Notes: generated by a model from the letters alone, not told the origin. DNA of 64,000 nt from Candidatus Woesebacteria bacterium (GCA_017999345.1 JAGNLY010000001.1:6884-70883); one strand, 5' to 3'; shown: positions 1,407 through 50,294, counted from the first letter of the stretch. Translations and numbers: made by a program.

Positions 1407-1991
1407 ATGTTGCAAGTAATTTTAGATGTAGAAACAAAAAAAACTTTCGATGAAGTCGGTGGTTTTTTCCCTGACAGATTAGGAATTTCTTTTGTTGGTG
1501 TTTGTGTTCGCGAAAGTATGTCTGGCAAGGGAGAAATGCAAAGCTATTGGGAAAAAGATTTGCCAAAATTATTTCCGCTTCTTGAAAAAGCAGATGTCAT
1601 CATTGGTTTTAATGTAGATAATTTTGATATGCAAACTTTTGTTCCATATTACAATGCCGATATTACAAAAATACCAACGCTAGATGTTTTAACAAGAATA
1701 AAAAATAGTGCTGGCCACAGAATTAGTCTTGATGCAGTTGCGCAGGAAACATTAGGAATTGGCAAAAGTGGCGATGGTTTGGATGCTATTAAATATTACA
1801 ATACCAAACAGTGGGACAAACTTGAAAAATATTGTTTGCAAGATGTAGCAGTCACTCGTGATGTTTATGATTATGGACTTCAAAAAGGTCTTGTGAAGTT
1901 TAAAAATAAATGGAATAGATTGGTTGAATGTCCTGTTGATTTTAGTTTTACACCAAAAAAAGATGATGGTTTGCAGATGAGCCTCATTTAG
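1407..1991 (+). CDS. DEDD-type 3'-5' exonuclease (RNase H-like fold)
   Basis: Exo motifs occur in the expected order: LDVETKKT (DxE), GFNVDNFDM (NxxxFD) and YCLQDVAVTRDVY (YxxxD). Confidence 0.6.
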   Translation: MLQVILDVETKKTFDEVGGFFPDRLGISFVGVCVRESMSGKGEMQSYWEKDLPKLFPLLEKADVIIGFNVDNFDMQTFVPYYNADITKIPTLDVLTRIKNSAGHRISLDAVAQETLGIGKSGDGLDAIKYYNTKQWDKLEKYCLQDVAVTRDVYDYGLQKGLVKFKNKWNRLVECPVDFSFTPKKDDGLQMSLI

Positions 1992-2043
1992 TATCTTAAA
2001 AACTCTCTGCTAAGCAAAGCTTAGATGTTCGTTTTTAAGATAC
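1991..2043 (+). repeat. Palindromic intergenic element, copy E1 (apical hairpin CTAAGC/GCTTAG)
   Basis: GTATCTTAAAAAC-TCTCTG-CTAAGCaaaGCTTAG-ATGTTC-GTTTTTAAGATAC. The 13-bp outer stem is perfect. The element starts at the stop codon of the upstream gene. Confidence 0.8.
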
Positions 2044-2061
2044 TAAATACAATCTTTTATC

Positions 2062-2108
2062 TATTAAACTCTCGCAAACTTCGTTTGAATGTTCGCTTTT
2101 TTAAATAT
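2062..2108 (+). repeat. Palindromic intergenic element, copy E2 (apical hairpin AAAC/GTTT)
   Basis: The core TCTCGC-AAACttcGTTT-GAATGTTC-GCTTTTTT is nearly identical to the reverse complement of the copy at 6329-6380. Confidence 0.75.
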
Positions 2109-2185
2109 GAAAAATTGTATTATAAATTCTCTAACTTGATATTAAATAAAATTGTTAATCAAAGATTTGTGGGTATAATAAAAAT

Positions 2186-2719
2186 ATGTCCGACTTACAA
2201 AAATTTTCCGCTAAAATTTGTCATACAGCAACCGGTATGTTGATAGTCGATGGCAAAGTGCTTTTAGTTAAACATAAAAAGTTAGGTTTTTGGCTAAACC
2301 CTGGTGGACATATTGAGGCTGATGAACTTCCACATATAGCTGTAGAACGTGAATTCTGGGAAGAGACTGGGATTAAAGTAAAAGCATATAATTTTCAAGA
2401 ATTAATGGAATCAAGTACTTCGGAATATGTCCCTTTGCCAATCTTGACCAGCTTGCATTGGATAAATAAAGAAAGTTATGAAAAGCGTCTTTCCAGTAGT
2501 GATAAGACTAAAAGGGTTGTGACTGAAAAGTGGCCACTGGGCTGTGAGCAACATTTTAATTATATGTTTTTAGTGAGGCCAGTCAAAGATATTGAATTCA
2601 GACAAAATACTGAAGAATCTGATGGTATTTCATGGTTTTCACTTGAGGATTTGGATAATTTGGATACAATTGAAGATATCAGGAACGAAATTAAATTAGG
2701 ATTTAAACTACTGCGATAG
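2186..2719 (+). CDS. NUDIX hydrolase
   Basis: The Nudix box GGHIEADELPHIAVEREFWEETGI matches Gx5Ex7REUxEExGU. Confidence 0.8.
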   Translation: MSDLQKFSAKICHTATGMLIVDGKVLLVKHKKLGFWLNPGGHIEADELPHIAVEREFWEETGIKVKAYNFQELMESSTSEYVPLPILTSLHWINKESYEKRLSSSDKTKRVVTEKWPLGCEQHFNYMFLVRPVKDIEFRQNTEESDGISWFSLEDLDNLDTIEDIRNEIKLGFKLLR

Positions 2720-2820
2720 AATTTTTCTAAATAAGAAACAATATGGGCGAAGAAACAGCAAGTAACGATGTATTTGATCCAATGAAGCTAACTGGTTGTG
2801 CTTAAACTTTATATTTCATC

Positions 2821-2994
2821 ATGTATAAAGATCTTTTTGCTGAAGCTAACATGGTAAAAAACATGTTTCCAAATGTCAAAGCTCCTCTTTCGGCAGCTCA
2901 GCAAGAATTAATGAGAATTAATAAACTTGACGCATATGATCAAAAAACTATCGATATAATTCTAAAACTTCAGCAAGCAATGAAGACTTCATGA
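2821..2994 (+). CDS. Possible 57-aa small protein (below the track size cutoff)
   Basis: ATG...TGA reads MYKDLFAEANMVKNMFPNVKAPLSAAQQELMRINKLDAYDQKTIDIILKLQQAMKTS. The sequence looks helical and protein-like, but no Shine-Dalgarno site is present. Confidence 0.3.
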   Translation: MYKDLFAEANMVKNMFPNVKAPLSAAQQELMRINKLDAYDQKTIDIILKLQQAMKTS

Positions 2995-3006
2995 TATTTG
3001 ATTTAG

Positions 3007-3035
3007 TTAGTCTAAATGATAATTCATGTTAGAAT
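3007..3035 (+). promoter_or_regulatory. Candidate sigma70-type promoter of the suf operon
   Basis: TTAGTC, a 17-nt spacer, then TAGAAT, about 28 nt upstream of the AAGGA ribosome-binding site and ATG 3063. Confidence 0.3.
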
Positions 3036-3062
3036 AGTTCCTCAACACTAAGGATTATTCAA

Positions 3063-3830
3063 ATGTCAAAAAATAGCTTCAGATTATCAAACCTAAAAGT
3101 TTCTATTGATGGAAAATCAATTCTTCGTGGAGTGGATTTGGAAGTAAAGGCTGGAGAAGTTCACGCTATCATGGGTCCAAATGGTTCTGGAAAATCAACT
3201 TTAGCCAATACTTTGGCAGGTCATCCAAGTTACCAGGTTGAAAGCGGAAGTGTTGTAATAAGTTCGCAAAAAACCCAAGAAAATATTTTAGACATGTCTC
3301 CAGACGAAAGAGCTAACCTTGGAGTTTTTCTAGCATTCCAGTACCCGGTGGAGGTCCCAGGAGTAAGAGTTCAAAATTTTCTTAAATTAGCTTACGAAGC
3401 TAGATTCAAAAATCAGCCAGAGCGACAATTCAAAAAAGCAATTGATTTTAGAAAGCATTTGCAAAATTTAGCAGAAGAATTAAAAATTAATAAAGATTTT
3501 TTGAGTCGCGGTCTTAATGAAGGTTTTAGTGGTGGCGAAAAGAAACAACTTGAAATTTTACAAATGGCTTTGCTTGAACCTAAATTTGCAATTTTAGATG
3601 AAACAGATTCTGGATTAGATATTGATGCAATTAAAAAAGTTGCCAATGGAGTTGTTGAAATTATCAAAAAACACAACACCGGCGTGATAGTAATCACACA
3701 TTATCAGCGAATTTTGGATTATCTTAAACCAGATTTTGTCCACGTTATGGTAAACGGCAAAATTGTGGAAACGGGTGATGCAACTTTAGTAGATAAGTTA
3801 GAGAAGAAAGGTTACGCTGATCTTAACTAA
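3063..3830 (+). CDS. sufC: Fe-S cluster assembly ATPase SufC
   Basis: Walker A GPNGSGKST, signature FSGGEKK and Walker B ILDETDSGLD. The length and the neighbouring sufB/D/S/U genes fit SufC. Confidence 0.95.
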   Translation: MSKNSFRLSNLKVSIDGKSILRGVDLEVKAGEVHAIMGPNGSGKSTLANTLAGHPSYQVESGSVVISSQKTQENILDMSPDERANLGVFLAFQYPVEVPGVRVQNFLKLAYEARFKNQPERQFKKAIDFRKHLQNLAEELKINKDFLSRGLNEGFSGGEKKQLEILQMALLEPKFAILDETDSGLDIDAIKKVANGVVEIIKKHNTGVIVITHYQRILDYLKPDFVHVMVNGKIVETGDATLVDKLEKKGYADLN

Positions 3831-3835
3831 ATAAA

Positions 3836-3893
3836 TTAATATTCAAAAGCTCTCGCAGGCAGTTCGCCTGAATGTTCGCTTTTTAAATATTAA
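3836..3893 (+). repeat. Palindromic intergenic element, copy E3 (apical hairpin AGGC/GCCT)
   Basis: TTAATATTCAAAAGC-TCTCGC-AGGCagttcGCCT-GAATGTTC-GCTTTTTAAATATTAA, directly after the sufC stop. The core is identical to the copy at 42754-42816. Confidence 0.8.
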
Positions 3894-3923
3894 TTTAATT
3901 TATTTAAACAATAATATATTTTT

Positions 3924-4406
3924 ATGAAAAAAGCTGACCACCAACTCACAAATAACGTCAAATTACTTCAAAAAGTTGTGCTAATTCATAACAATAAATT
4001 TTTGATTATGCGCAGATCAGAATCATCTCATTCAAGACCACTCGCTTGGGATTTGCCAGGAGGTAATTCTGAATGGCCAGAAACTCTTGATAACAAAGAG
4101 AACATGCATAAAAATGATGCTGTGAGAGAAATTTTTGAAGAAACTGGAATACAGTTGGACTCAGAAAAAATTATCATAGAAAATTTAGTTGATTTCAGAA
4201 CCTTTTTTGATGCAGAAAATCAAGTTTACAGTGTAATCGTTGGTTGGAAGATTAATTTAGATGAAAATTTTGATGAAGAATCAGTTGAAATTAGCGATGA
4301 GCATATTAATTTTAAATGGATCACGATTGAAGAAATTGATAACTTTGATTTTGGCGGTAACAAAGGTGAGTTTGTGAAAGAAATTATAAAAAAATCAGTA
4401 TCATAA
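3924..4406 (+). CDS. NUDIX hydrolase
   Basis: The Nudix box is spread as GGNSEW...NDAVREIFEETGIQ. The gene is embedded in the suf operon. Confidence 0.7.
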   Translation: MKKADHQLTNNVKLLQKVVLIHNNKFLIMRRSESSHSRPLAWDLPGGNSEWPETLDNKENMHKNDAVREIFEETGIQLDSEKIIIENLVDFRTFFDAENQVYSVIVGWKINLDENFDEESVEISDEHINFKWITIEEIDNFDFGGNKGEFVKEIIKKSVS

Positions 4407-4436
4407 TTTAAAGATATCATTAAAAAGGTACAGATT

Positions 4437-4781
4437 ATGAATGGTCTCGACAATGAAAACACACTAATGAAAAGCATAGTATCAGAAGCATTAGCGAAGC
4501 TTCTCTTGGTTTCATCAGAAAAGCCAGACAGAATTTTAAACAGTACTGATGGAAAATCTAAATGGAGACGTGGGTGGTTTGCATCAGTGCTTGGTTACAT
4601 TGATATGTTGGGAATAGATTACTTTCAAAAGGATGAAAAATTGGAAATAAGAATTTCTGAATCTAGGAAAAGCTGGACTTCTGGAGAAATGAGACAAAGA
4701 GCATTAGTATTGCAAAGTGATATTGATCAAGCAGATACGTTAATAAATGATATTTTAAACTATATAAATAATGACAAATAA
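4437..4781 (+). CDS. Hypothetical protein (114 aa) inside the suf operon
   Basis: An intact ORF packed between the NUDIX gene and sufB. It has no cysteines and no motif I recognise. Confidence 0.5.
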   Translation: MNGLDNENTLMKSIVSEALAKLLLVSSEKPDRILNSTDGKSKWRRGWFASVLGYIDMLGIDYFQKDEKLEIRISESRKSWTSGEMRQRALVLQSDIDQADTLINDILNYINNDK

Positions 4782-4786
4782 ATTTG

Positions 4787-6214
4787 ATGGCAAGATTTAC
4801 TAATAAGAAAACCAAAAATTTTGAAACAAGTGCTTCAGATTCTTATGAGCACGGTTTTTCCTATTCTACTGATGATTATAAATTTATTTCAAAACCTGGA
4901 ATTAATGAAGGTGTTGTTAAGGAAATTTCTGGAATTAAAAATGAACCAGAATGGATGCTTAAATTACGTTTAGAAGCTCTAAAAGCTTTTCAAGTGAAAC
5001 AAACTCCAATTTGGGGCGCAGATTTATCTTCAATTGATTACGATAAAATTCATTATTATTTAAGACCATCTGATAAACAAGAAAAATCTTGGGATGATGT
5101 GCCACCAGAAATTAAGGCCACTTTTGAAAAATTAGGAATTCCTGAGGCTGAACGTGAGGCTTTGGCAGGAGTTAAAGCCCAATATGATAGTGAAGTTGTT
5201 TATGGCTCACTAAAAGATATTTGGTCAAAAGATGGCGTGGTTTTCCTTTCAATGGACGAAGGACTCGCTCAATATCCAGATTTAGTAAAAGAATATTTCA
5301 ATAGAGTTATTCCTTATGGAGATAATAAATTTTCAGCTTTAAATACAGCAGCTTGGTCAGGTGGTTCATTTGTTTATATTCCAAAAGGGGTTCATGTACA
5401 AATGCCATTACAGACTTATTTTAGAATTAATTCTCCAAATGCTGGTCAGTTTGAAAGAACTTTAATTATTGTTGATGAAGGCGCAAGTGTTCACTACGTT
5501 GAAGGTTGTACTGCTCCAAGTTTTTCAAGTGGTTCGTTACATGCGGCGGTTGTAGAAATTTATGTTAAAAAAGGCGCAAGGTGTCAGTACACGACGGTCC
5601 AAAATTGGTACAAAAATGTTTATAACTTAGTCACCAAAAGAGCTCATGTTGAAGAAGAAGGTGAGATGGTTTGGACAGATTTTAATATGGGTTCAAAAGT
5701 AACCATGAAATACCCAGGTTTTATTTTGGCTGGAAAAGGTGCAAGAGGCGAGGTTTTGTCTATGGCTTTAGCTGGCGCAGGCCAACATCAAGACACAGGA
5801 ACTAAATCAATTCATTTAGCCCCATACACAAGCTCATCAGTTGTTTCTAAATCAATTAGCAAAAGTGGCGGTAGAACCAGTTATCGTGGTTTAGTTAATG
5901 TTGGTCCACATGCACATCATTCAAAAAATACAGTGATTTGTGACGCTTTGCTTTTGGATGGAATTTCTCGTTCTGACACTTATCCGACAGATAAAATTTT
6001 TAACTCAAATGTGGAAGTTCAGCACGAAGCCACTGTCTCTAAAATTGGTGATGACCAATTATTTTATTTAATGAGTAGAGGTGTGACTGAGGAACAAGCT
6101 CGTAAAATGATTGTGAATGGATTTATTGATGATTTGATTCGTAAATTGCCAATGGAGTATGCAGTAGAAATGAATAGGTTAATTGATCATGAGATGGAGG
6201 GCTCAATTGGTTAG
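4787..6214 (+). CDS. sufB: Fe-S cluster assembly scaffold SufB
   Basis: Typical SufB blocks: GGSFVYIPKGV, VHYVEGCTAP, TKRAHVEEEGEMVWTD and HEATVSKIGDDQLFYLMSRG. ATG 4787 follows the track's TTG at 4784. Confidence 0.95.
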   Translation: MARFTNKKTKNFETSASDSYEHGFSYSTDDYKFISKPGINEGVVKEISGIKNEPEWMLKLRLEALKAFQVKQTPIWGADLSSIDYDKIHYYLRPSDKQEKSWDDVPPEIKATFEKLGIPEAEREALAGVKAQYDSEVVYGSLKDIWSKDGVVFLSMDEGLAQYPDLVKEYFNRVIPYGDNKFSALNTAAWSGGSFVYIPKGVHVQMPLQTYFRINSPNAGQFERTLIIVDEGASVHYVEGCTAPSFSSGSLHAAVVEIYVKKGARCQYTTVQNWYKNVYNLVTKRAHVEEEGEMVWTDFNMGSKVTMKYPGFILAGKGARGEVLSMALAGAGQHQDTGTKSIHLAPYTSSSVVSKSISKSGGRTSYRGLVNVGPHAHHSKNTVICDALLLDGISRSDTYPTDKIFNSNVEVQHEATVSKIGDDQLFYLMSRGVTEEQARKMIVNGFIDDLIRKLPMEYAVEMNRLIDHEMEGSIG

Positions 6215-6225
6215 TTGTTTAACTT

Positions 6226-6290
6226 AATAAATATTTTAAAAAACTCTCTGCTAAGCAAAGCTTAGATGTTCGTTTTTTCAAATATTTATT
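6226..6290 (+). repeat. Palindromic intergenic element, copy E4 (apical hairpin CTAAGC/GCTTAG)
   Basis: AATAAATATTTTAAAAAAC-TCTCTG-CTAAGCaaaGCTTAG-ATGTTC-GTTTTTTCAAATATTTATT. The 19-bp outer stem has one mismatch. The core is identical to E1. Confidence 0.8.
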
Positions 6291-6328
6291 TATACTAAAC
6301 AAAAATCAATTAAAAGATAACATTAAGT

Positions 6329-6380
6329 AAATATATAAAAACGAACATTCAAACGAAGTTTGCGAGAGTTTTTATTAATT
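6329..6380 (-). repeat. Palindromic intergenic element, copy E5 (inverted; apical hairpin AAAC/GTTT)
   Basis: AAAAACGAACATTCAAACGAAGTTTGCGAGAGTTTTT is the reverse complement of the E2 core. A partial CGAGAGAGTTTTT follows at about 6397-6409. Confidence 0.75.
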
Positions 6381-6440
6381 TACTCAAAATAACGATCGAG
6401 AGAGTTTTTCAAATTTATTAAATAAATACTTACGAATAAT

Positions 6441-6935
6441 ATGACAAAGTACACAATTAACAAAGACGAAAAAAAGGATATCTCAATCAAAGAATCTGGA
6501 GAGTATATCGTCGAGCTCGTCGGTCAAGGAGCGCAAGCTGAAATATTCGGCAATTTTTTGAGCGAAAATAATGAAAAGATTGACGTCAAAATTACCATCA
6601 TTCACAAAGCTAAAAACACAATGGCAAACACAACTTTGAGAGGTGTTGGTAGAGATAAATCGACAATTAAATTTTTTGGAAAAATTATCATTGAGGAAAA
6701 TTGTGGCCAAAGTAATTCGTTCCTAACAGAAAGAGTTTTGTTACTTTCTGACGATGCAAAAGCGGAAACCATTCCAGAATTAGAGATTCTTACCGATGAT
6801 GTTAAATGCTCTCACGCAGCAAGTATTAGTAGAATTCCCGAACTACAATTGTTTTATTTAGAATCAAGAGGGATTTCAAAACATGATGCAGAAAATTTAA
6901 TAATCGACGGTTTTCTCCAACCTAAAAAAAGTTAA
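6441..6935 (+). CDS. sufD: Short SufD-like protein (C-terminal SufBD domain only)
   Basis: LSDDAKAETIPELEILTDDVKCSHAASISRIPELQLFYLESRGIS matches the SufB/SufD C-terminal block. It is only 164 aa and sits between sufB and sufS. Confidence 0.7.
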   Translation: MTKYTINKDEKKDISIKESGEYIVELVGQGAQAEIFGNFLSENNEKIDVKITIIHKAKNTMANTTLRGVGRDKSTIKFFGKIIIEENCGQSNSFLTERVLLLSDDAKAETIPELEILTDDVKCSHAASISRIPELQLFYLESRGISKHDAENLIIDGFLQPKKS

Positions 6936-6975: not shown

Positions 6976-8217
6976 ATGTTAAATACAGATAATATCAAGC
7001 GAAACTTCCCAATTTTATCAAGAGAAATAAATGGTAAAAAATTGGTTTATTTGGATAATGCTGCCACCAGTCAAAAACCATTTTCTGTTGTGGAAGCTAT
7101 TTCTAGTTATTATCTAAATAATAATGCAAATGTTCACAGAGGCGTGCATACGCTTTCTGATGAAAGCACCACAATTTTTGAAGATTCTAAAAAGGAAATT
7201 GCTGAATTTTTTGGAGCCAAAAATTCTGAATTAATTCTCGTGAGGAATACTACTGAAGCAATTAATGGTGTTGCTTATGGCTGGGGAGATCACAATATTA
7301 TTGAGGGTGATGTGATAATTACGTCAATTTTAGATCACCATTCAAATATTGTTGTTTGGCAAGAACTTTGTAAACGTAAAAATGCCAATTTAATTTTTAT
7401 TGGTCTAACAAAAGATGGTCAAATTGATCTAAAAGATTTAGATGAAAAAATTAAGCAATTTTCTGAAAAAATTAAACTAATTGCTTTGCCACACGTATCA
7501 AATGCACTTGGAAGTGTTTTAAATATTCGAGATTTAGTTGGCAAAATAAATTCATCTGCAAAATTTGCTAAAATTTTAATTGATGGGGCTCAATCGGCTC
7601 CACACATGAAAATTAATTTTCATAATTTAGGCGTAGATTTTTTTGTTTTTTCTGGACACAAAATGTTAGGGCCAATGGGAATCGGTGGATTATTGGTAAA
7701 GGAAAAAATACTTAAAACTGGAGAAATGGAACCATGGTTATTTGGTGGCGGAATGATTTCTGAAGTTCACCAAACACACACTGAATTTAACGATGATGTT
7801 AATGAGCGATTTGTGGCAGGAACACCTGATGTTGCTTCAACAGTTGGTTTAGCAACAGCATGTAAATATTTAAATAATTTGGGAATGGAAAATGTTTTTA
7901 CTCATGATCAAGAGATGGTTCAGTATGCATTATCCAAATTAGCTGAAAATAAAAAAATTAAAATAGTCGGGCCAATAAATTCAGATAGAGTTGGCTCAGT
8001 GGCATTTCTTTATGAAGGAGCACATGCACACGATGTGGCTCAGGTTTTAAATAGCGATGGCATTGCAGTTCGTTCCGGTCATCATTGCACGATGCCACTT
8101 CACACCTCACAAAATTGGGCAGCTACAACTCGCGTAAGTTTTCAAGTTTATAATTCAAAAGAAGACATAGATTTATTAATTGAAAGTTTGAAAAAGGTTG
8201 AAAAAATATTGGTTTAG
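6976..8217 (+). CDS. sufS: Cysteine desulfurase SufS (class V aminotransferase)
   Basis: YLDNAATSQKP, NANVHRGVH, the PLP-lysine context SGHKMLGPMGIG and the active-site segment RSGHHCTMP. Confidence 0.9.
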   Translation: MLNTDNIKRNFPILSREINGKKLVYLDNAATSQKPFSVVEAISSYYLNNNANVHRGVHTLSDESTTIFEDSKKEIAEFFGAKNSELILVRNTTEAINGVAYGWGDHNIIEGDVIITSILDHHSNIVVWQELCKRKNANLIFIGLTKDGQIDLKDLDEKIKQFSEKIKLIALPHVSNALGSVLNIRDLVGKINSSAKFAKILIDGAQSAPHMKINFHNLGVDFFVFSGHKMLGPMGIGGLLVKEKILKTGEMEPWLFGGGMISEVHQTHTEFNDDVNERFVAGTPDVASTVGLATACKYLNNLGMENVFTHDQEMVQYALSKLAENKKIKIVGPINSDRVGSVAFLYEGAHAHDVAQVLNSDGIAVRSGHHCTMPLHTSQNWAATTRVSFQVYNSKEDIDLLIESLKKVEKILV

Positions 8218-8644: not shown

Positions 8645-9226
8645 ATGAATATTTTTGTTGGCTCTACAAATCCAGTTAAAGTTAATTCAGTAATTAATGC
8701 TTCCATAAAAACTTGGCCCGAGGTTAAAGTTGAGGGTTTTGAAGTTGCTAGCGGAGTTTCTGAGCAGCCTGTTGGTGATGATGTTACCAAGATTGGTGCA
8801 ATCAATCGAGCCACTGCGGTTTTACAGCTCGGCTTAAAGAAATATGAAACAGATAATTTTAAGTTTCCAGATGATCAAGTTTTAGGTGTTGGTTTAGAAG
8901 GTGGTGTCATTGAAGATAGCGAGGGTCAAATGTGGTCAACAGTCTGGGCAGTGGTTGTTGATAAGACTGGTTTTAAAGAATTTAGCAATGGCGCTAGATT
9001 TAGAGTTCCAGAAATTGTGGCGAGCCAAATTAGATCTGGTGGTGAAATGGGGCCGATTATTGCTAAAATAGTGGGTGAGGAAGATGTTAGGAAAAAACAA
9101 GGAATGATTGGCATTGCCACCAAAAATTTTGTTGATCGAACTGAGGAATATCAAGCCATAGTCAAGTTAACGCTTGGTTTGTGGTATGGTAGAGATTGGG
9201 TAAAAGAGCTATCAATTACAAGGTGA
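8645..9226 (+). CDS. Non-canonical purine NTP phosphatase (YjjX/DUF84-like)
   Basis: The N-terminus MNIFVGSTNPVKVNSV and ASGVSEQPVGDDVT resemble inosine/xanthosine triphosphatases. ATG 8645 is preferred over the track start at 8624. Confidence 0.6.
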   Translation: MNIFVGSTNPVKVNSVINASIKTWPEVKVEGFEVASGVSEQPVGDDVTKIGAINRATAVLQLGLKKYETDNFKFPDDQVLGVGLEGGVIEDSEGQMWSTVWAVVVDKTGFKEFSNGARFRVPEIVASQIRSGGEMGPIIAKIVGEEDVRKKQGMIGIATKNFVDRTEEYQAIVKLTLGLWYGRDWVKELSITR

Positions 9227-11928: not shown

Positions 11929-11958
11929 AAACCCCCTGATTATTCAGGGGGTTTTTGT
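11929..11958 (+). terminator. Rho-independent terminator
   Basis: AAACCCCCTGAttatTCAGGGGGTTTTTGTTT: an 8-bp GC-rich stem followed by a T-run. Confidence 0.8.
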
Positions 11959-21978: not shown

Positions 21979-22983
21979 TTGTATATGAAAAATAAAACTC
22001 TATTGTTGGTTCTTTCGTTCGCCGTAGTTGCTAGCTTGTTAACTATGGCTTCAAAATCAAATATTTCATTTTTTGGTCAGGGCAGAATGAGCTCTCTGCT
22101 TAGAGGTGACGGGTTTAATGAAACTATGGAGCAATTTGATAGTACTAGTGGATCTGAAGTGATGTATAAAAATGCTGAGCCTGCAAGGGATATGGCCTAT
22201 GGTGGAGTGATGATGGATAGCTCAATTATCGCTGAGCCATTGCCAACCGACTCAATGCCAATCGATCTAAAAATGATGCCTCCATATTATGGTGATGATG
22301 CTCTTGATGTACAAGACAGAGTTTATCAAAAATCTTCCTATCACGTAGTTATTGTTGATGATGTTCAAGCATATTTGCGAGGAATGAAAGAGTACATTTT
22401 AAGTATCGGCGGTGTAGTCTTAAATTCCGGAGTTTCTGCAGGCGATGGCTCAAACAATACTTATAATAGTGGTTCTTTGTACGTAAAAGTTCCAGTCAAT
22501 AAATTTGATGAGGTAACTGGAAGAGTGACTGAAAATGTTGAAAAAGTATTTTCGGAAAGTATTAATGCTAGCGACATAACTGGACAGTTAGTTGGTTCTA
22601 CTGAAACTTTACAAGATTTGAAAGATCAAAAATCTCTAAAAGAAGCAGCTTTGTCTGAAGCAAAATCTGAGGTTGAGAAGAGAAGATATCAAATTGAGAT
22701 TAGCAGATTAGATCAACAAATCGCATCAGCAGAGAAAGGTCTTGATAACGTCGAAGCTCAAATTGAGTATTCGTCAGTCTCAATTGAGGCTTCTGATAGC
22801 GAAAAATACTATAATCCAGATGCAGATGTTGGATTTAAAGAAGAATTCTTGAAAGCTTGGGAATCAGTTAAAGAAGTTATAAAACTTGCATTATACTTTG
22901 GTATTTGGGTATTTGTTTACTCGATAGTATGGCTGCCAATAGTCATAGTGATCAAAAAACTTTTTAGGAAGTTTGGGAATTAA
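21979..22983 (+). CDS. DUF4349-like protein (signal peptide, coiled coil, C-terminal transmembrane helices)
   Basis: The architecture is a signal or anchor, a central coiled coil (LKDQKSLKEAALSEAKSEVEKRRYQIE) and C-terminal hydrophobic helices. ATG 21985 is the likely start. Confidence 0.45.
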   Translation: MYMKNKTLLLVLSFAVVASLLTMASKSNISFFGQGRMSSLLRGDGFNETMEQFDSTSGSEVMYKNAEPARDMAYGGVMMDSSIIAEPLPTDSMPIDLKMMPPYYGDDALDVQDRVYQKSSYHVVIVDDVQAYLRGMKEYILSIGGVVLNSGVSAGDGSNNTYNSGSLYVKVPVNKFDEVTGRVTENVEKVFSESINASDITGQLVGSTETLQDLKDQKSLKEAALSEAKSEVEKRRYQIEISRLDQQIASAEKGLDNVEAQIEYSSVSIEASDSEKYYNPDADVGFKEEFLKAWESVKEVIKLALYFGIWVFVYSIVWLPIVIVIKKLFRKFGN

Positions 22984-23534: not shown

Positions 23535-23612
23535 TTATTTATTTGGGAAATTATTCACTAGCAAACCCAGAAATAGCTTATTAGGCTTGTTCTGAGTTAT
23601 TTAGCATTTTTG

Positions 23613-24029
23613 TGGAGATGACGAGTAATGATCTCGTGTCCGCAACAGTAAGTTAGCATTATCTACAGACATAGTTTATTTTTGTTAATGTAAAAGAGGA
23701 GAATAAACAAACCCTGCTTTTACAATCTTTGTCAACTTTTACTTAAGCAAAAACCAACAAACGAGTTTTTGTCGTCACATTGACTGGGTTGAGTCATTCT
23801 AATTAAAAACGCCAATGAGATTATTTAATAGAATGCCTAATTAAGCAACTAAAGCTGCGTAAGAAGGTGCTGAGAAGTAACTGGCAACATCGGATTTAAC
23901 CTTTGTTAACATACTCTTAGCAGTTGCAATTTTATCTGCAATTATTTTTTGACTCTGTTTTACATCTTTCTTAGTCAAAGATGGTCTGCAAATGTTAAAG
24001 TACGTATCACGTCAAAGCAATACATCCCC
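23613..24029 (-). ncRNA. ssrA: tmRNA (SsrA)
   Basis: The 5' end GGGGATGTATTGCTTTGACG pairs with the 3' end GGAC-ACGAG-ATCATTA-CTCGT-CATCTCC-A and includes a G3:U70 wobble. CAAAAAATAATT-GCA resembles the E. coli resume context. The proposed tag is ADKIATAKSMLTKVKSDVASYFSAPSYAALVA, with its stop at 23843-23841. Confidence 0.85.
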
Positions 24030-31911: not shown

Positions 31912-32114
31912 ACTATAGGTTATTATTTAGTCTTGTTATTTCGCATAACAATAAACTGAAAATAACCAAAGTTCTTTAACATACCACGTGATTTAGAAAT
32001 TTAATGATGGCTTGCCCATACTAATTGCATATAAAAATAAAATATGTGCGCTTGGCATGGGCAAGCATGAAATTTAATTCAAACTTGCTCAAATAAATTT
32101 ATTTGGAGAAAGAA

Positions 32115-32447
32115 ATGAAAAAGAATAAAAGCAAGTTTAGTTTTTGGTTTTTGGCGGTTTTGGCCGCCACAATGGTTGTTGTTGCAGCTTGTGGCACAGT
32201 TGCACCGGTAGAAGTTGTTTCGAGCGCGACTTATACGCTCACTAATTCTGACGGTGTCGTCGCCACTATCAGTTGGGATGGTGCCAACTGGAGCTGCACA
32301 ACGGTGCCCGCGATTGAGGGTTCACCCTGCGCCCAAATGTTGGGCTCTCAATACATGTTTTTCTATGGCACTGATAAGATCGCCAAGGAAAAACTCTTGG
32401 GAGGAGTCCAGGTGGGATCATTGATCCCTCAATCAAATTGGAAATAG
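32115..32447 (+). CDS. Putative lipoprotein, G+C-rich relative to its surroundings
   Basis: GGAGAAAGAA precedes the ATG. The signal peptide has a lipobox-like VVAAC. The composition is visibly richer in G+C. Confidence 0.55.
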   Translation: MKKNKSKFSFWFLAVLAATMVVVAACGTVAPVEVVSSATYTLTNSDGVVATISWDGANWSCTTVPAIEGSPCAQMLGSQYMFFYGTDKIAKEKLLGGVQVGSLIPQSNWK

Positions 32448-41632: not shown

Positions 41633-41653
41633 TATTTTTATTTTAAAACTTTT

Positions 41654-41706
41654 GGGAAAGTTTCTTCTAACACTCGCTTGCGCTCGTGCCGGTCAGAAAC
41701 TTTCCC
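41654..41706. terminator. Long hairpin between convergent genes
   Basis: GGGAAAGTTTCT and AGAAACTTTCCC form a 12-bp stem around a 29-nt G+C-rich loop. Confidence 0.5.
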
Positions 41707-41717
41707 GCAAATTTTCC

Positions 41718-42506: not shown

Positions 42507-42755
42507 ATGAAAAACTGGTTTGTTTATATCCTAAAATGTGGTGATAATTCACTTTATACAGGTTCAACAACTGATCTTGAAAAAAGATTGGCTAAACACT
42601 CAAGTGGTTTGGGTGCAAAATATACTCGTAGTCACCTGCCAGTAAAATTAGTTTATTTTGAGAAACTTTCTAGTAAATCACTAGCTTTTAAACGTGAAGC
42701 TGAGATTAAGAGGTTATCTAGAAAAGAAAAGCTGTTAATTTTAGATACCAAATAA
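42507..42755 (+). CDS. GIY-YIG domain protein (stand-alone URI nuclease domain)
   Basis: WFVYILKCGDNSLYTGSTTDLEKRLAKH is the GIY...YIG pattern, followed by a conserved Arg and Glu. Confidence 0.8.
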   Translation: MKNWFVYILKCGDNSLYTGSTTDLEKRLAKHSSGLGAKYTRSHLPVKLVYFEKLSSKSLAFKREAEIKRLSRKEKLLILDTK

Positions 42756-42816
42756 TAAATATTTGAAAAGCTCTCGCAGGCAGTTCGCCTGAATGTTCGC
42801 TTTTCAAATATTTATT
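42754..42816 (+). repeat. Palindromic intergenic element, copy E6 (apical hairpin AGGC/GCCT)
   Basis: AATAAATATTTGAAAAGC-TCTCGC-AGGCagttcGCCT-GAATGTTC-GCTTTTCAAATATTTATT. The 18-bp outer stem is perfect. Confidence 0.85.
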
Positions 42817-42892
42817 AAAGTCAATAAAATTAACTGATTTATACTATAATAATTAATATACGAAATCAAAATATTTTTTATAGTGAACATGG

Positions 42893-49805: not shown

Positions 49806-50294
49806 TTACCCCCAAAACTTCCAAACTCCCAACAGGCTAACTAAAACGATTATTAACCCAATTAATGGCAGCGTATACTTGCTCGCCATCCATGAGGGTT
49901 TTTCAACATGCCAGATTGGTGACTTGGAGAGAATGAAAGCTCCAAAGCACAACCCGGTCATTGCCAGCATTCCAGCAAAGTTTCCAACAAAAGCGATTAA
50001 AATTGCACATGCATTCAAAATAAACTGAATCGTATATGCAATGAAACCGATTGTGGGATCTCCCTTGGATATGGCTAGAGCAAATAGTGCGCCGACTAGC
50101 ATGAGTGTGGCCATAAAACATAATGCGGCCACAACTCTAAGCATTACTACCTCATTTTTCCACAGCGCAACGCTCACCAAAATGTTGGCGATTAACATCG
50201 CGAGAGTGGTTTCGTACGGTTTTTCATACAATATATTTCTCATTGTCATCTCCATGTGTTTATCAAATTTTTTGAGTGGTAAATTTCTATTCAC
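49806..50294 (-). CDS. Hypothetical membrane protein, G+C-rich
   Basis: Four or five transmembrane helices. The track start is GTG 50294. ATG 50243, with GGAG 6 nt upstream, is an alternative start. Confidence 0.5.
   Translation of the reverse strand: MNRNLPLKKFDKHMEMTMRNILYEKPYETTLAMLIANILVSVALWKNEVVMLRVVAALCFMATLMLVGALFALAISKGDPTIGFIAYTIQFILNACAILIAFVGNFAGMLAMTGLCFGAFILSKSPIWHVEKPSWMASKYTLPLIGLIIVLVSLLGVWKFWG

Follow-up and report, generated by a model that had tools for sequence, protein, structure and literature searches.

A 64,000-nucleotide (nt) stretch of the genome of Candidatus Woesebacteria bacterium (GCA_017999345.1, JAGNLY010000001.1:6884-70883; hereafter the window, with positions counted from its first nucleotide) carries a family of palindromic elements, present as six full copies and one truncated half copy, all of them intergenic. 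We read the element, with moderate confidence, as a previously undescribed, non-autonomous DNA repeat of a Patescibacteria clade, comparable to repetitive extragenic palindromes (REPs) and miniature inverted-repeat transposable elements (MITEs). Its copies have been gained, lost, replaced, tandem-duplicated, nested and flipped on the time scale of strain divergence. The conserved bubble at the centre of each palindrome is probably the recognition site of a putative trans-acting factor, and the arms around it are probably kept paired by template switching.

Design, folding and covariation of the copies

The element is a near-perfect palindrome of 60–75 base pairs (bp) with an asymmetric core of ~40 nt at its centre. 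Each copy runs from an AT-rich 5′ arm through AAAA(A/G)C, TCTC(TG/GC), a short hairpin and (GA)ATGTTC to G(C/T)TTTT and the 3′ arm; the order within the core is AAAAGC, TCTC(G), a 5-bp hairpin (the apical hairpins have 5–6 bp), (A)ATGTTC and GCTTTT. An earlier sequence-only reading of the window had described six palindromic copies of one shared design, and they are found where it placed them: the pattern CTCTSKS-N(8-20)-ATGTTCG has six matches, compared to 0.01 expected from dinucleotide shuffles (Table 1). Covariance models built from the six copies (R1) and from 25 copies (R2) were used to score every window position with filters off. Both tell the strands apart clearly (for example, 84 vs 35 bits), and neither found a further full copy in the whole 64 kb.

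The window copies fall into three pairs with identical cores, namely copies 1 and 4 (39 nt), copies 3 and 6 (39 nt) and copies 2 and 5 (30 nt), so that each of three apical hairpin types occurs exactly twice. The arms differ within each pair, and identical cores of 30–39 nt at non-orthologous loci with differing arms indicate that cores have been copied between loci. Copies are also clustered, forming a tandem pair (1 and 2) and an inverted pair (4 and 5) in the window and tandem pairs in two other assemblies (L059 and L104), with half and nested copies occurring as well.

Table 1 Copies of the palindromic repeat in the window, with their core-pattern matches, settings and structures
Copy	Coordinates	Strand	Core-pattern match	Setting	Structure
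Copy 1	1986..2048	+	2003-2031	Site A, 3′ of the RNase-H-like exonuclease gene (1407-1991)	18-bp outer stem including the TAG stop; bubble TCTCTG/ATGTTC; apical T1, CTAAGC-AAA-GCTTAG
Copy 2	2062..2108	+	2069-2095	Tandem, 14 nt past copy 1	Core intact; outer stem vestigial; apical T2, CAAAC-TTC-GTTTG
Copy 3	3830..3899	+	3850-3878	Site B, gap between sufC (3063-3830) and a NUDIX gene (3924-4406)	Apical T3, CAGGC-AGTTC-GCCTG
Copy 4	6222..6294	+	6244-6272	Site C, 8-12 nt 3′ of sufB (4784-6214)	Apical T1
Copy 5	6322..6388	-	6342-6368	53 nt upstream of sufD (6441)	Inverted; apical T2
Half copy (seventh, truncated)	~6398..6428	-		Abuts copy 5	TATTTATTTAATAAATTTGAAAAACTCTCTC, a 5′ arm plus CTCTC, followed by unrelated sequence
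Copy 6	42751..42820	+	42771-42799	From the stop codon of a GIY-YIG gene (42507-42755, 82 aa) onward; maf (42893) lies downstream	19-bp perfect outer stem; apical T3

Five of the six full copies fold as a long AT-rich stem with a bubble and an apical hairpin, with energies of -15.5 to -28.5 kcal/mol and z scores of -5.3 to -8.6 (copy 6: -28.5 kcal/mol, z -8.6). The proposal of the sequence-only reading that an outer stem encloses the loop therefore stands for these five and fails for copy 2 (2055-2115), which has almost no outer stem and a z score of -0.7. Likewise, its three apical versions and its covarying closing pair, AAAAAC/GTTTTT versus AAAAGC/GCTTTT, were recovered, except that the closing pair of copy 2 is an A/C mismatch.

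Covariation was assessed on a model-based alignment of 25 sense-oriented copies (24 different sequences), drawn from the window plus at least six other assemblies. In the apical helix, double changes affect all five pairs, and 98% of cells are paired across the 24 distinct copies; in the outer helix, double changes occur at 11 of 19 pairs. None of 500 column shuffles matched the observed percent paired, the number of pairs or cells changed on both sides, or the covariation score, while the observed count of further pair types was reached by 14 of 500. Control structures in which the 3′ partners were slid by 1–3 columns scored far lower.

While these compensatory changes are real, as had been claimed, they are no proof in their own right of selection on an RNA structure, because template switching homogenises the arms of palindromes. 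Template switching between inverted repeats has been found both to homogenise the arms and to invert the spacer (PMC8604942), and it drives quasipalindrome mutation in Escherichia coli (PMC7202029). Traces of this kind occur among the copies themselves: at the dnaB site, an indel that distinguishes L091 from L132 is mirrored in both arms, and at site A two substitutions between L001 and L123 are each mirrored in the opposite arm. The caution extends beyond this family, in that textbook-looking covariation can arise in DNA palindromes without RNA function. What needs explanation is instead the asymmetric bubble, which is never "corrected" into a paired stem.

Conservation rises toward the centre of the element. 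The arms differ in every non-orthologous copy and the outer ends are variable and fuzzy; the conserved parts are the central AAAAGC..GCTTTT and the bubble. In addition to the three types of the window, the apical hairpin occurs as CAGAC-AGTTC-GTCTG, CAGGA-ACAAG-TCCTG, TCGAA-ACARG-TTCGA and TTGGG-ACAAG-CCCAA, with the loop ACAAG retained across three different apical stems. Copies located by synteny or with the models vary within the bubble as well, reading ACTCACA...AAGTGTTC in L123 (CTCAC/AAGTGTTC), CTCTCT...AAACGTTC in L144 and TCACAC...AATCGTTC in L145, and the parts that stay constant across them are C-TC (5′ side) and GTTCG (3′ side).

A scan of the whole window with Rfam 15 at gathering thresholds returned only a transfer-messenger RNA (tmRNA) and six transfer RNAs, and no known family matches the copies. 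Permissive Rfam scans of the copies gave just generic microRNA-precursor-like hairpins at 10–23 bits, compared to thresholds of 40–175. We also discarded readings of the bubble as a K-turn, loop-E/sarcin-ricin, hammerhead or box C/D motif: its GA varies and is confined to one strand, and neither AGUA nor CUGAUGA occurs.

Turnover between strains and relatives

We compared the window to a sister strain (GCA_964496685.1; L138 and L142), which is 95–97.5% identical to it, and to four assemblies syntenic in the suf region at 72–81% nucleotide identity (L001=L118=L144, L123, L126 and L145). Site B, between sufC and the NUDIX gene, is filled in the window and in L123 and empty in L001/L144, which have a 22-nt spacer, and in the sister strain. 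There, in L138, sufC and the NUDIX gene overlap as ATGA, where the window has an extra, clean segment of 100 nt that carries copy 3, supplies the new stop codon and contains no open reading frame (ORF). The reverse is seen at site D, between an NTPase and an oxidoreductase gene, which holds a copy in L123 and L144 but none in the window.

Other sites stay occupied while their contents change. Site C, after sufB, is filled in every genome examined, by five apical types (T1, T3, T4, T5 or a degenerate T2-like form), and in the sister strain the T1 of the window is replaced by a complete T3 element that comes after an old 5′ arm. The same layout of an old 5′ arm plus a complete element is formed by copy 5 and the half copy in the window. 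At site A, after the exonuclease gene, the window carries T1 and the sister strain T3, and L001 and L123 have other types. Sites A and C agree within each of the two close strains, being T1 in the window and T3 in its sister, a pattern indicative of concerted replacement inside a genome. The window and L138 have copy 5 and the half copy in common; more distant relatives lack copies 2 and 5 and the half copy (copy 5: L001, L123 and L126), and copy 2 was not seen at site A in relatives. Copy 6 is also present in L140. Since the family differs between strains that are 97% identical, it is usable as a strain marker.

Insertion can alter the ends of genes, with arms supplying stop codons and C-terminal residues. 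At site D of L123 (10290-10330), the reading frame of the upstream NTPase_I-T ends within the left arm, which provides its last 5–6 residues and its stop, and the right arm is an inverted copy of the left; the protein ends in ...DLNINT* in L123 and in ...ELSITR* in the window (9190-9226), which has no element there. In the window itself, three genes (exonuclease, sufC and GIY-YIG) have their stop codons in stems or at the base of them.

The copies also leave a mark on assembly. Logan short-read contigs from the window's own strain (SRR11088486; L137, L139, L141 and L143) all start or end within a copy (1, 2, 3, 5 or 6), with ends that match window positions 6344, 42795, ~2027, 2072 and ~3874, as expected of repeats sharing k-mers of at least 30 nt. 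The family therefore systematically fragments, at each of its copies, short-read assemblies of these ultra-small bacteria, which belong to the Patescibacteria or candidate phyla radiation (CPR).

Orientation, mechanism and alternative explanations

Among the independent sites, ten hold copies in sense orientation only, four in antisense orientation only and two in both. At the sense-only sites, the co-oriented upstream gene has its stop codon close by, the start of the model match lying at -9 to +16 nt from it. The antisense-only sites are copy 5, a site 27–47 nt upstream of nusA (L131/L133), one in L134 and one in L120, the last in the gap between a tRNA and a 23S rRNA gene within an rRNA operon; strong hairpins have thus been inserted inside essential operons, the suf operon among them. 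The rare apical hairpin TTGGG-ACAAG-CCCAA and similar arms are common to L123 and L144 at site D, but the two cores agree only if one of them is reverse-complemented (25/30 vs 15/30 positions). Folding energies summed over 25 copies are -563 kcal/mol for the sense and -574 kcal/mol for the antisense strand, and G-U pairs are equally rare on both. The sequence-only reading had left two explanations side by side. Its REP/MITE-like mobile hairpin is favoured by the presence or absence, replacement and flipping of copies between strains and at orthologous sites; its protein-binding RNA motif loses ground, since the asymmetric core is conserved in both orientations and the two strands fold equally well. 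Its view that the copies probably terminate transcription is weakened as well, by the copies within the suf operon and the rRNA spacer, by the roughly one third of sites in antisense orientation, by the bubble that breaks the stem beside the T-run and by the canonical GC-rich terminators found elsewhere in the genome.

If the element is a mobile DNA repeat, a hairpin or cruciform exposing the unpaired bubble would be recognised by a putative trans-acting protein, either a DNA enzyme or a binding protein, that is specific for this structure. The long AT-rich arms would be kept complementary and extended into flanking DNA not by selection on RNA but by recombination between them or by template switching during replication, which would also invert the core. 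Where a copy at or just after a stop codon is transcribed, it probably acts as an orientation-independent 3′ hairpin (a partial terminator, mRNA-end protector or RNase III substrate) and may interfere with ribosomes if the stem begins at the stop codon, an effect reported for such stems in E. coli REPs. This side effect would explain why copies persist at some sites, but not why the core is conserved, and a role of the repeat in termination or at mRNA ends is probably secondary.

A more specific version of this mechanism, which we regard as quite unlikely, takes the invariant bubble (C-TC/GTTCG), resisting the correction by template switching that keeps the rest of the palindrome paired, as both cleavage and recognition site of an undescribed CPR hairpin-specific DNA enzyme that is not of the REP-associated tyrosine transposase (RAYT)/IS200 type. 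Just the ~40-nt core would be copied into existing palindromes, and the arms would be regenerated from flanking DNA. Two junctions, at which a complete new element continues from an old 5′ arm ending in ...AAAAC-(T)CTC, hint that the 5′ loop was broken. If true, it would add a new way in which bacterial repeats are mobilised.

Several observations weigh against a mobile repeat. No transposase, RAYT/Y1, integrase or insertion sequence (IS) was found in Pfam scans of ~60 of the 74 window ORFs of at least 60 aa, and a crude HUH..Y regular expression applied to 310 ORFs in ~209 kb of related CPR DNA found none in element-bearing loci; a missing transposase is a weak negative, however, because such a gene usually occurs once per genome. 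At the one clean junction between a filled and an empty site (site B in the window and L138), there is no target-site duplication of more than 1 nt, and the ends of the element are fuzzy and unconserved. The apparent invariance of the core is partly circular, because copies found by exact pattern contain the core by construction. About two thirds of sites are in sense orientation and adjacent to stop codons, as for a 3′-end RNA signal, although the bias is not significant (10 vs 4, binomial p ~0.18). Finally, sites A and C remain occupied across lineages down to 72–81% nucleotide identity, suggesting a benefit to the host. The nearest copy to a single Transposase_mut fragment in L144 is 3 kb away, and the ends of the fragment do not match; the GIY-YIG gene beside copy 6 was rejected as a partner nuclease, adjacency at one site being its sole support.

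The most direct alternative is a host RNA signal, either an intrinsic (possibly bidirectional) terminator or an intercistronic hairpin at mRNA ends or for RNase III, in which the bubble would bind an RNA-binding protein. The placement of sense copies near upstream stop codons, the T-run that follows GC, the very stable folds, the covariation of both helices and the occupation of sites A and C in all or most relatives are each in line with it, and by our own inference the stems of 20–27 bp are long enough for RNase III. RNase III sites with conserved internal loops between the early genes of phage T7, and E. coli mRNA 3′ ends stabilised by REPs, are analogues. We nevertheless hold this explanation to be unlikely. 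Four to six sites are antisense, including the rRNA operon spacer and one copy 27 nt upstream of nusA; the core flips at an orthologous site, yet its sequence is conserved both ways round; and neither energy nor G-U content sets the strands apart. Copies lie within the suf operon, and the sister strain has sufC and the NUDIX gene translationally coupled at the location of copy 3. Turnover between strains is too rapid for a required signal. The repeat does share with Rho-independent bidirectional terminators a hairpin flanked by an A-run and a T-run just past stop codons, but its stems are AT-rich and 2–3 times the usual length, a GC and four A-U pairs close a 5×7 bubble that breaks the stem beside a T4-6 run, and that T-run is itself paired with the A-run. 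Its core, moreover, is common to unrelated genes and genomes, and copies are found antisense and inside operons, whereas other transcription units of the genome end with canonical GC-rich hairpins and T-runs (in the window at 11929-11954 and after the genes at 21979-22983, 32103-32447 and 49806-50294).

Conservation of the core regardless of orientation, its presence in several species-level genomes and the intergenic, terminator-like placement could also mark a chromosomal DNA-binding or architectural site, for a nucleoid protein, gyrase or a replication factor, as with REPs in bacterial interspersed mosaic elements (BIMEs), or a DNA-uptake signal of the DUS/USS kind. We judge this very unlikely, given that the density of ~1 copy per 10 kb is uneven, with five of six copies in 6.4 kb and none in 21 kb of L145, and that gain and loss between strains, identical cores at unrelated loci and nested copies indicate copying rather than origin by point mutation; an uptake signal would need neither a covarying hairpin nor long arms, and would also occur within genes. 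Far less probable still are integron-like attC sites marking gene cassettes. The repeat is superficially similar to them in build (a paired outer box, unpaired spacer, inner stem and variable terminus), recognition in both would rest on structure rather than sequence, its copies follow ORFs, mostly in one orientation, and a strain-specific ORF of 114 aa (4437-4781) lies in the same operon. The missing R box effectively refutes the idea: there is no paired RYYYAAC/GTTRRRY (R''/R'), as the GTT of ATGTTCG is unpaired opposite CTCTC and no AAC exists on the 5′ side. No integrase was found in the Pfam scans of the window, the flanking genes are syntenic housekeeping genes and not cassettes, the 100-nt insert has no ORF, and the 114-aa ORF has no adjoining copy.

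Taken as a DNA repeat, the element is closest to REP/BIME and MITE families while departing from what defines REPs, MITEs and attC sites alike. REPs of Enterobacteria and Pseudomonas, which are mobilised by RAYT, a domesticated IS200-like HUH transposase, are likewise short, extragenic, imperfect palindromes in many copies and both orientations; they form tandem and inverted clusters between genes of one operon, vary between strains, form 3′ hairpins when transcribed and are thought to be recognised as folded single-stranded DNA. However, a REP has 20–40 nt and a conserved stem, compared to 60–75 nt, a conserved unpaired mid-bubble and variable stems here. The conserved 5′ GT[AG]G of REPs is missing (the 25-copy alignment has no GTAG or GTGG, its single-stranded motifs being TCTC and (A)ATGTTC), no RAYT was found among the window ORFs scanned, and the host is a CPR bacterium of ~1 Mb. 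MITE- and ERIC-type repeats (Correia/NEMIS, RUP, ERIC/IRU and Rickettsia RPE) are similarly non-coding, hairpin-forming, dispersed and intergenic, with presence/absence polymorphism, nested and truncated copies and breaks in short-read assemblies, and the absence of copy 3 from the sister strain and the replacements at sites A and C fit this type. MITEs have conserved terminal inverted repeats and a target-site duplication, whereas here variability peaks at the ends and conservation at the centre, the one clean junction has no duplication, and no parent IS is known. The design is thus inverted relative to both families, with a conserved unpaired centre and free paired arms. Identification of the factor that reads this centre would reveal by what means DNA is moved in a lineage that depends on hosts and recombines little.

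Distribution and neighbouring features

A scan of 185,579 species-representative genomes with a deliberately loose pattern gave at least 113 matches; ~105 of the 113 listed are due to chance, and the taxonomic breadth is under-sampled. Among the matches listed, those with the hairpin and AT-rich arms were in Patescibacteria/CPR assemblies only: JAHIVL01, VFLK01 ("Paceibacterota"), PFJN01 ("Pacebacteria") and JACKFW010000001.1, a 1.08-Mb contig of isolate HK-STAS-PATE-15 that is labelled Pseudomonadales. A stricter pattern applied to 241 million metagenome records identified 21 loci, 14 of them true and carrying 16 copies. In both scans, the sources of the true copies were Patescibacteria-labelled records, other CPR records under different labels and AT-rich contigs without a label, part of them syntenic with the window. 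Viral contigs yielded two chance matches and no true copy, and we rejected a phage origin on this basis. By its SufB homologues, the window falls among genomes that bear the labels Patescibacteria, Pacebacteria and Woesebacteria. Further copies, on whose existence the sequence-only reading had made its family depend, are present in relatives, and judged by these searches the family appears confined to a narrow clade of Patescibacteria/CPR (with the labels Pacebacteria, Woesebacteria and Paceibacterota). Genomes of this group are streamlined, ~1 Mb in size and not known to be rich in repeats. In the literature searched we found no description of such a repeat, nor of any dispersed repeat family, for CPR/Patescibacteria.

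Some public records (L004, L112, L145 [JACKFW010000001.1]; P0056) have a CPR-type locus under Proteobacteria labels ("Pseudomonadales bacterium HK-STAS-PATE-15" and "Vitreimonas sp."), which are probably mis-assigned. A second palindrome family, unrelated to the main one, combines AT-rich arms with the core ...CTAAAGC(G)AAAACTCGCTAATRCTCA...; it lies at L125 5896-5990 and L123 ~7520-7560, in genome FLOH01000084, within intergenic regions that the main family also occupies, and the window lacks it.

Five of the six full copies lie in the first 6.4 kb of the window, in a run of genes for superoxide dismutase (SOD), an RNase-H-like exonuclease, a NUDIX protein, SufC, a second NUDIX protein, SufB, SufD and SufS. 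Across genomes, the neighbours are unrelated housekeeping genes, comprising those for SOD, the exonuclease, NUDIX, sufC/sufB/sufD, GIY-YIG, maf, dnaB, a 5′-3′ exonuclease and a glycosyltransferase, along with dnaJ, nusA, tyrS, recG, trpS, tatD and an rRNA spacer; a regulon or operator motif was rejected for this reason. The sufD-like gene of the window (6441-6935) encodes 164 aa only, and its match to the SUFBD core is limited to the 136 C-terminal positions; relatives carry a similarly short version (161–184 aa).

Between the NUDIX gene and sufB, the window has a strain-specific insert of ~410 nt (4380-4787), which contains the 114-aa ORF, without a Pfam match; the insert is absent from the 97%-identical sister L138, from L001 and from L123, and no copy of the repeat adjoins it. 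At site A of L145 (7150-7270), three tandem units of ~30 nt (aaaattggttgtgcttctagctaagtctta) stand where other genomes hold the palindromic repeat. The gap between sufD and sufS in relatives holds large lineage-specific inserts, L144 10721-13252 with an 843-aa protein that has no Pfam domain and L145 12088-15392 with several genes; the suf locus is an insertion hotspot in this clade.

Two further features of the window are separate from the repeat. Between two convergent genes, the interval 41633-41717 contains a perfect 13-bp hairpin with GC pairs, GGGAAAGTTTCT...AGAAACTTTCCC, which looks like a classical bidirectional terminator, unlike the design of the repeat. The tmRNA gene (23610-24029, minus strand) is ~420 nt long, has a long insertion compared to the 374-position Rfam model (77.5 bits) and lies in a 1.1-kb gene-free gap.

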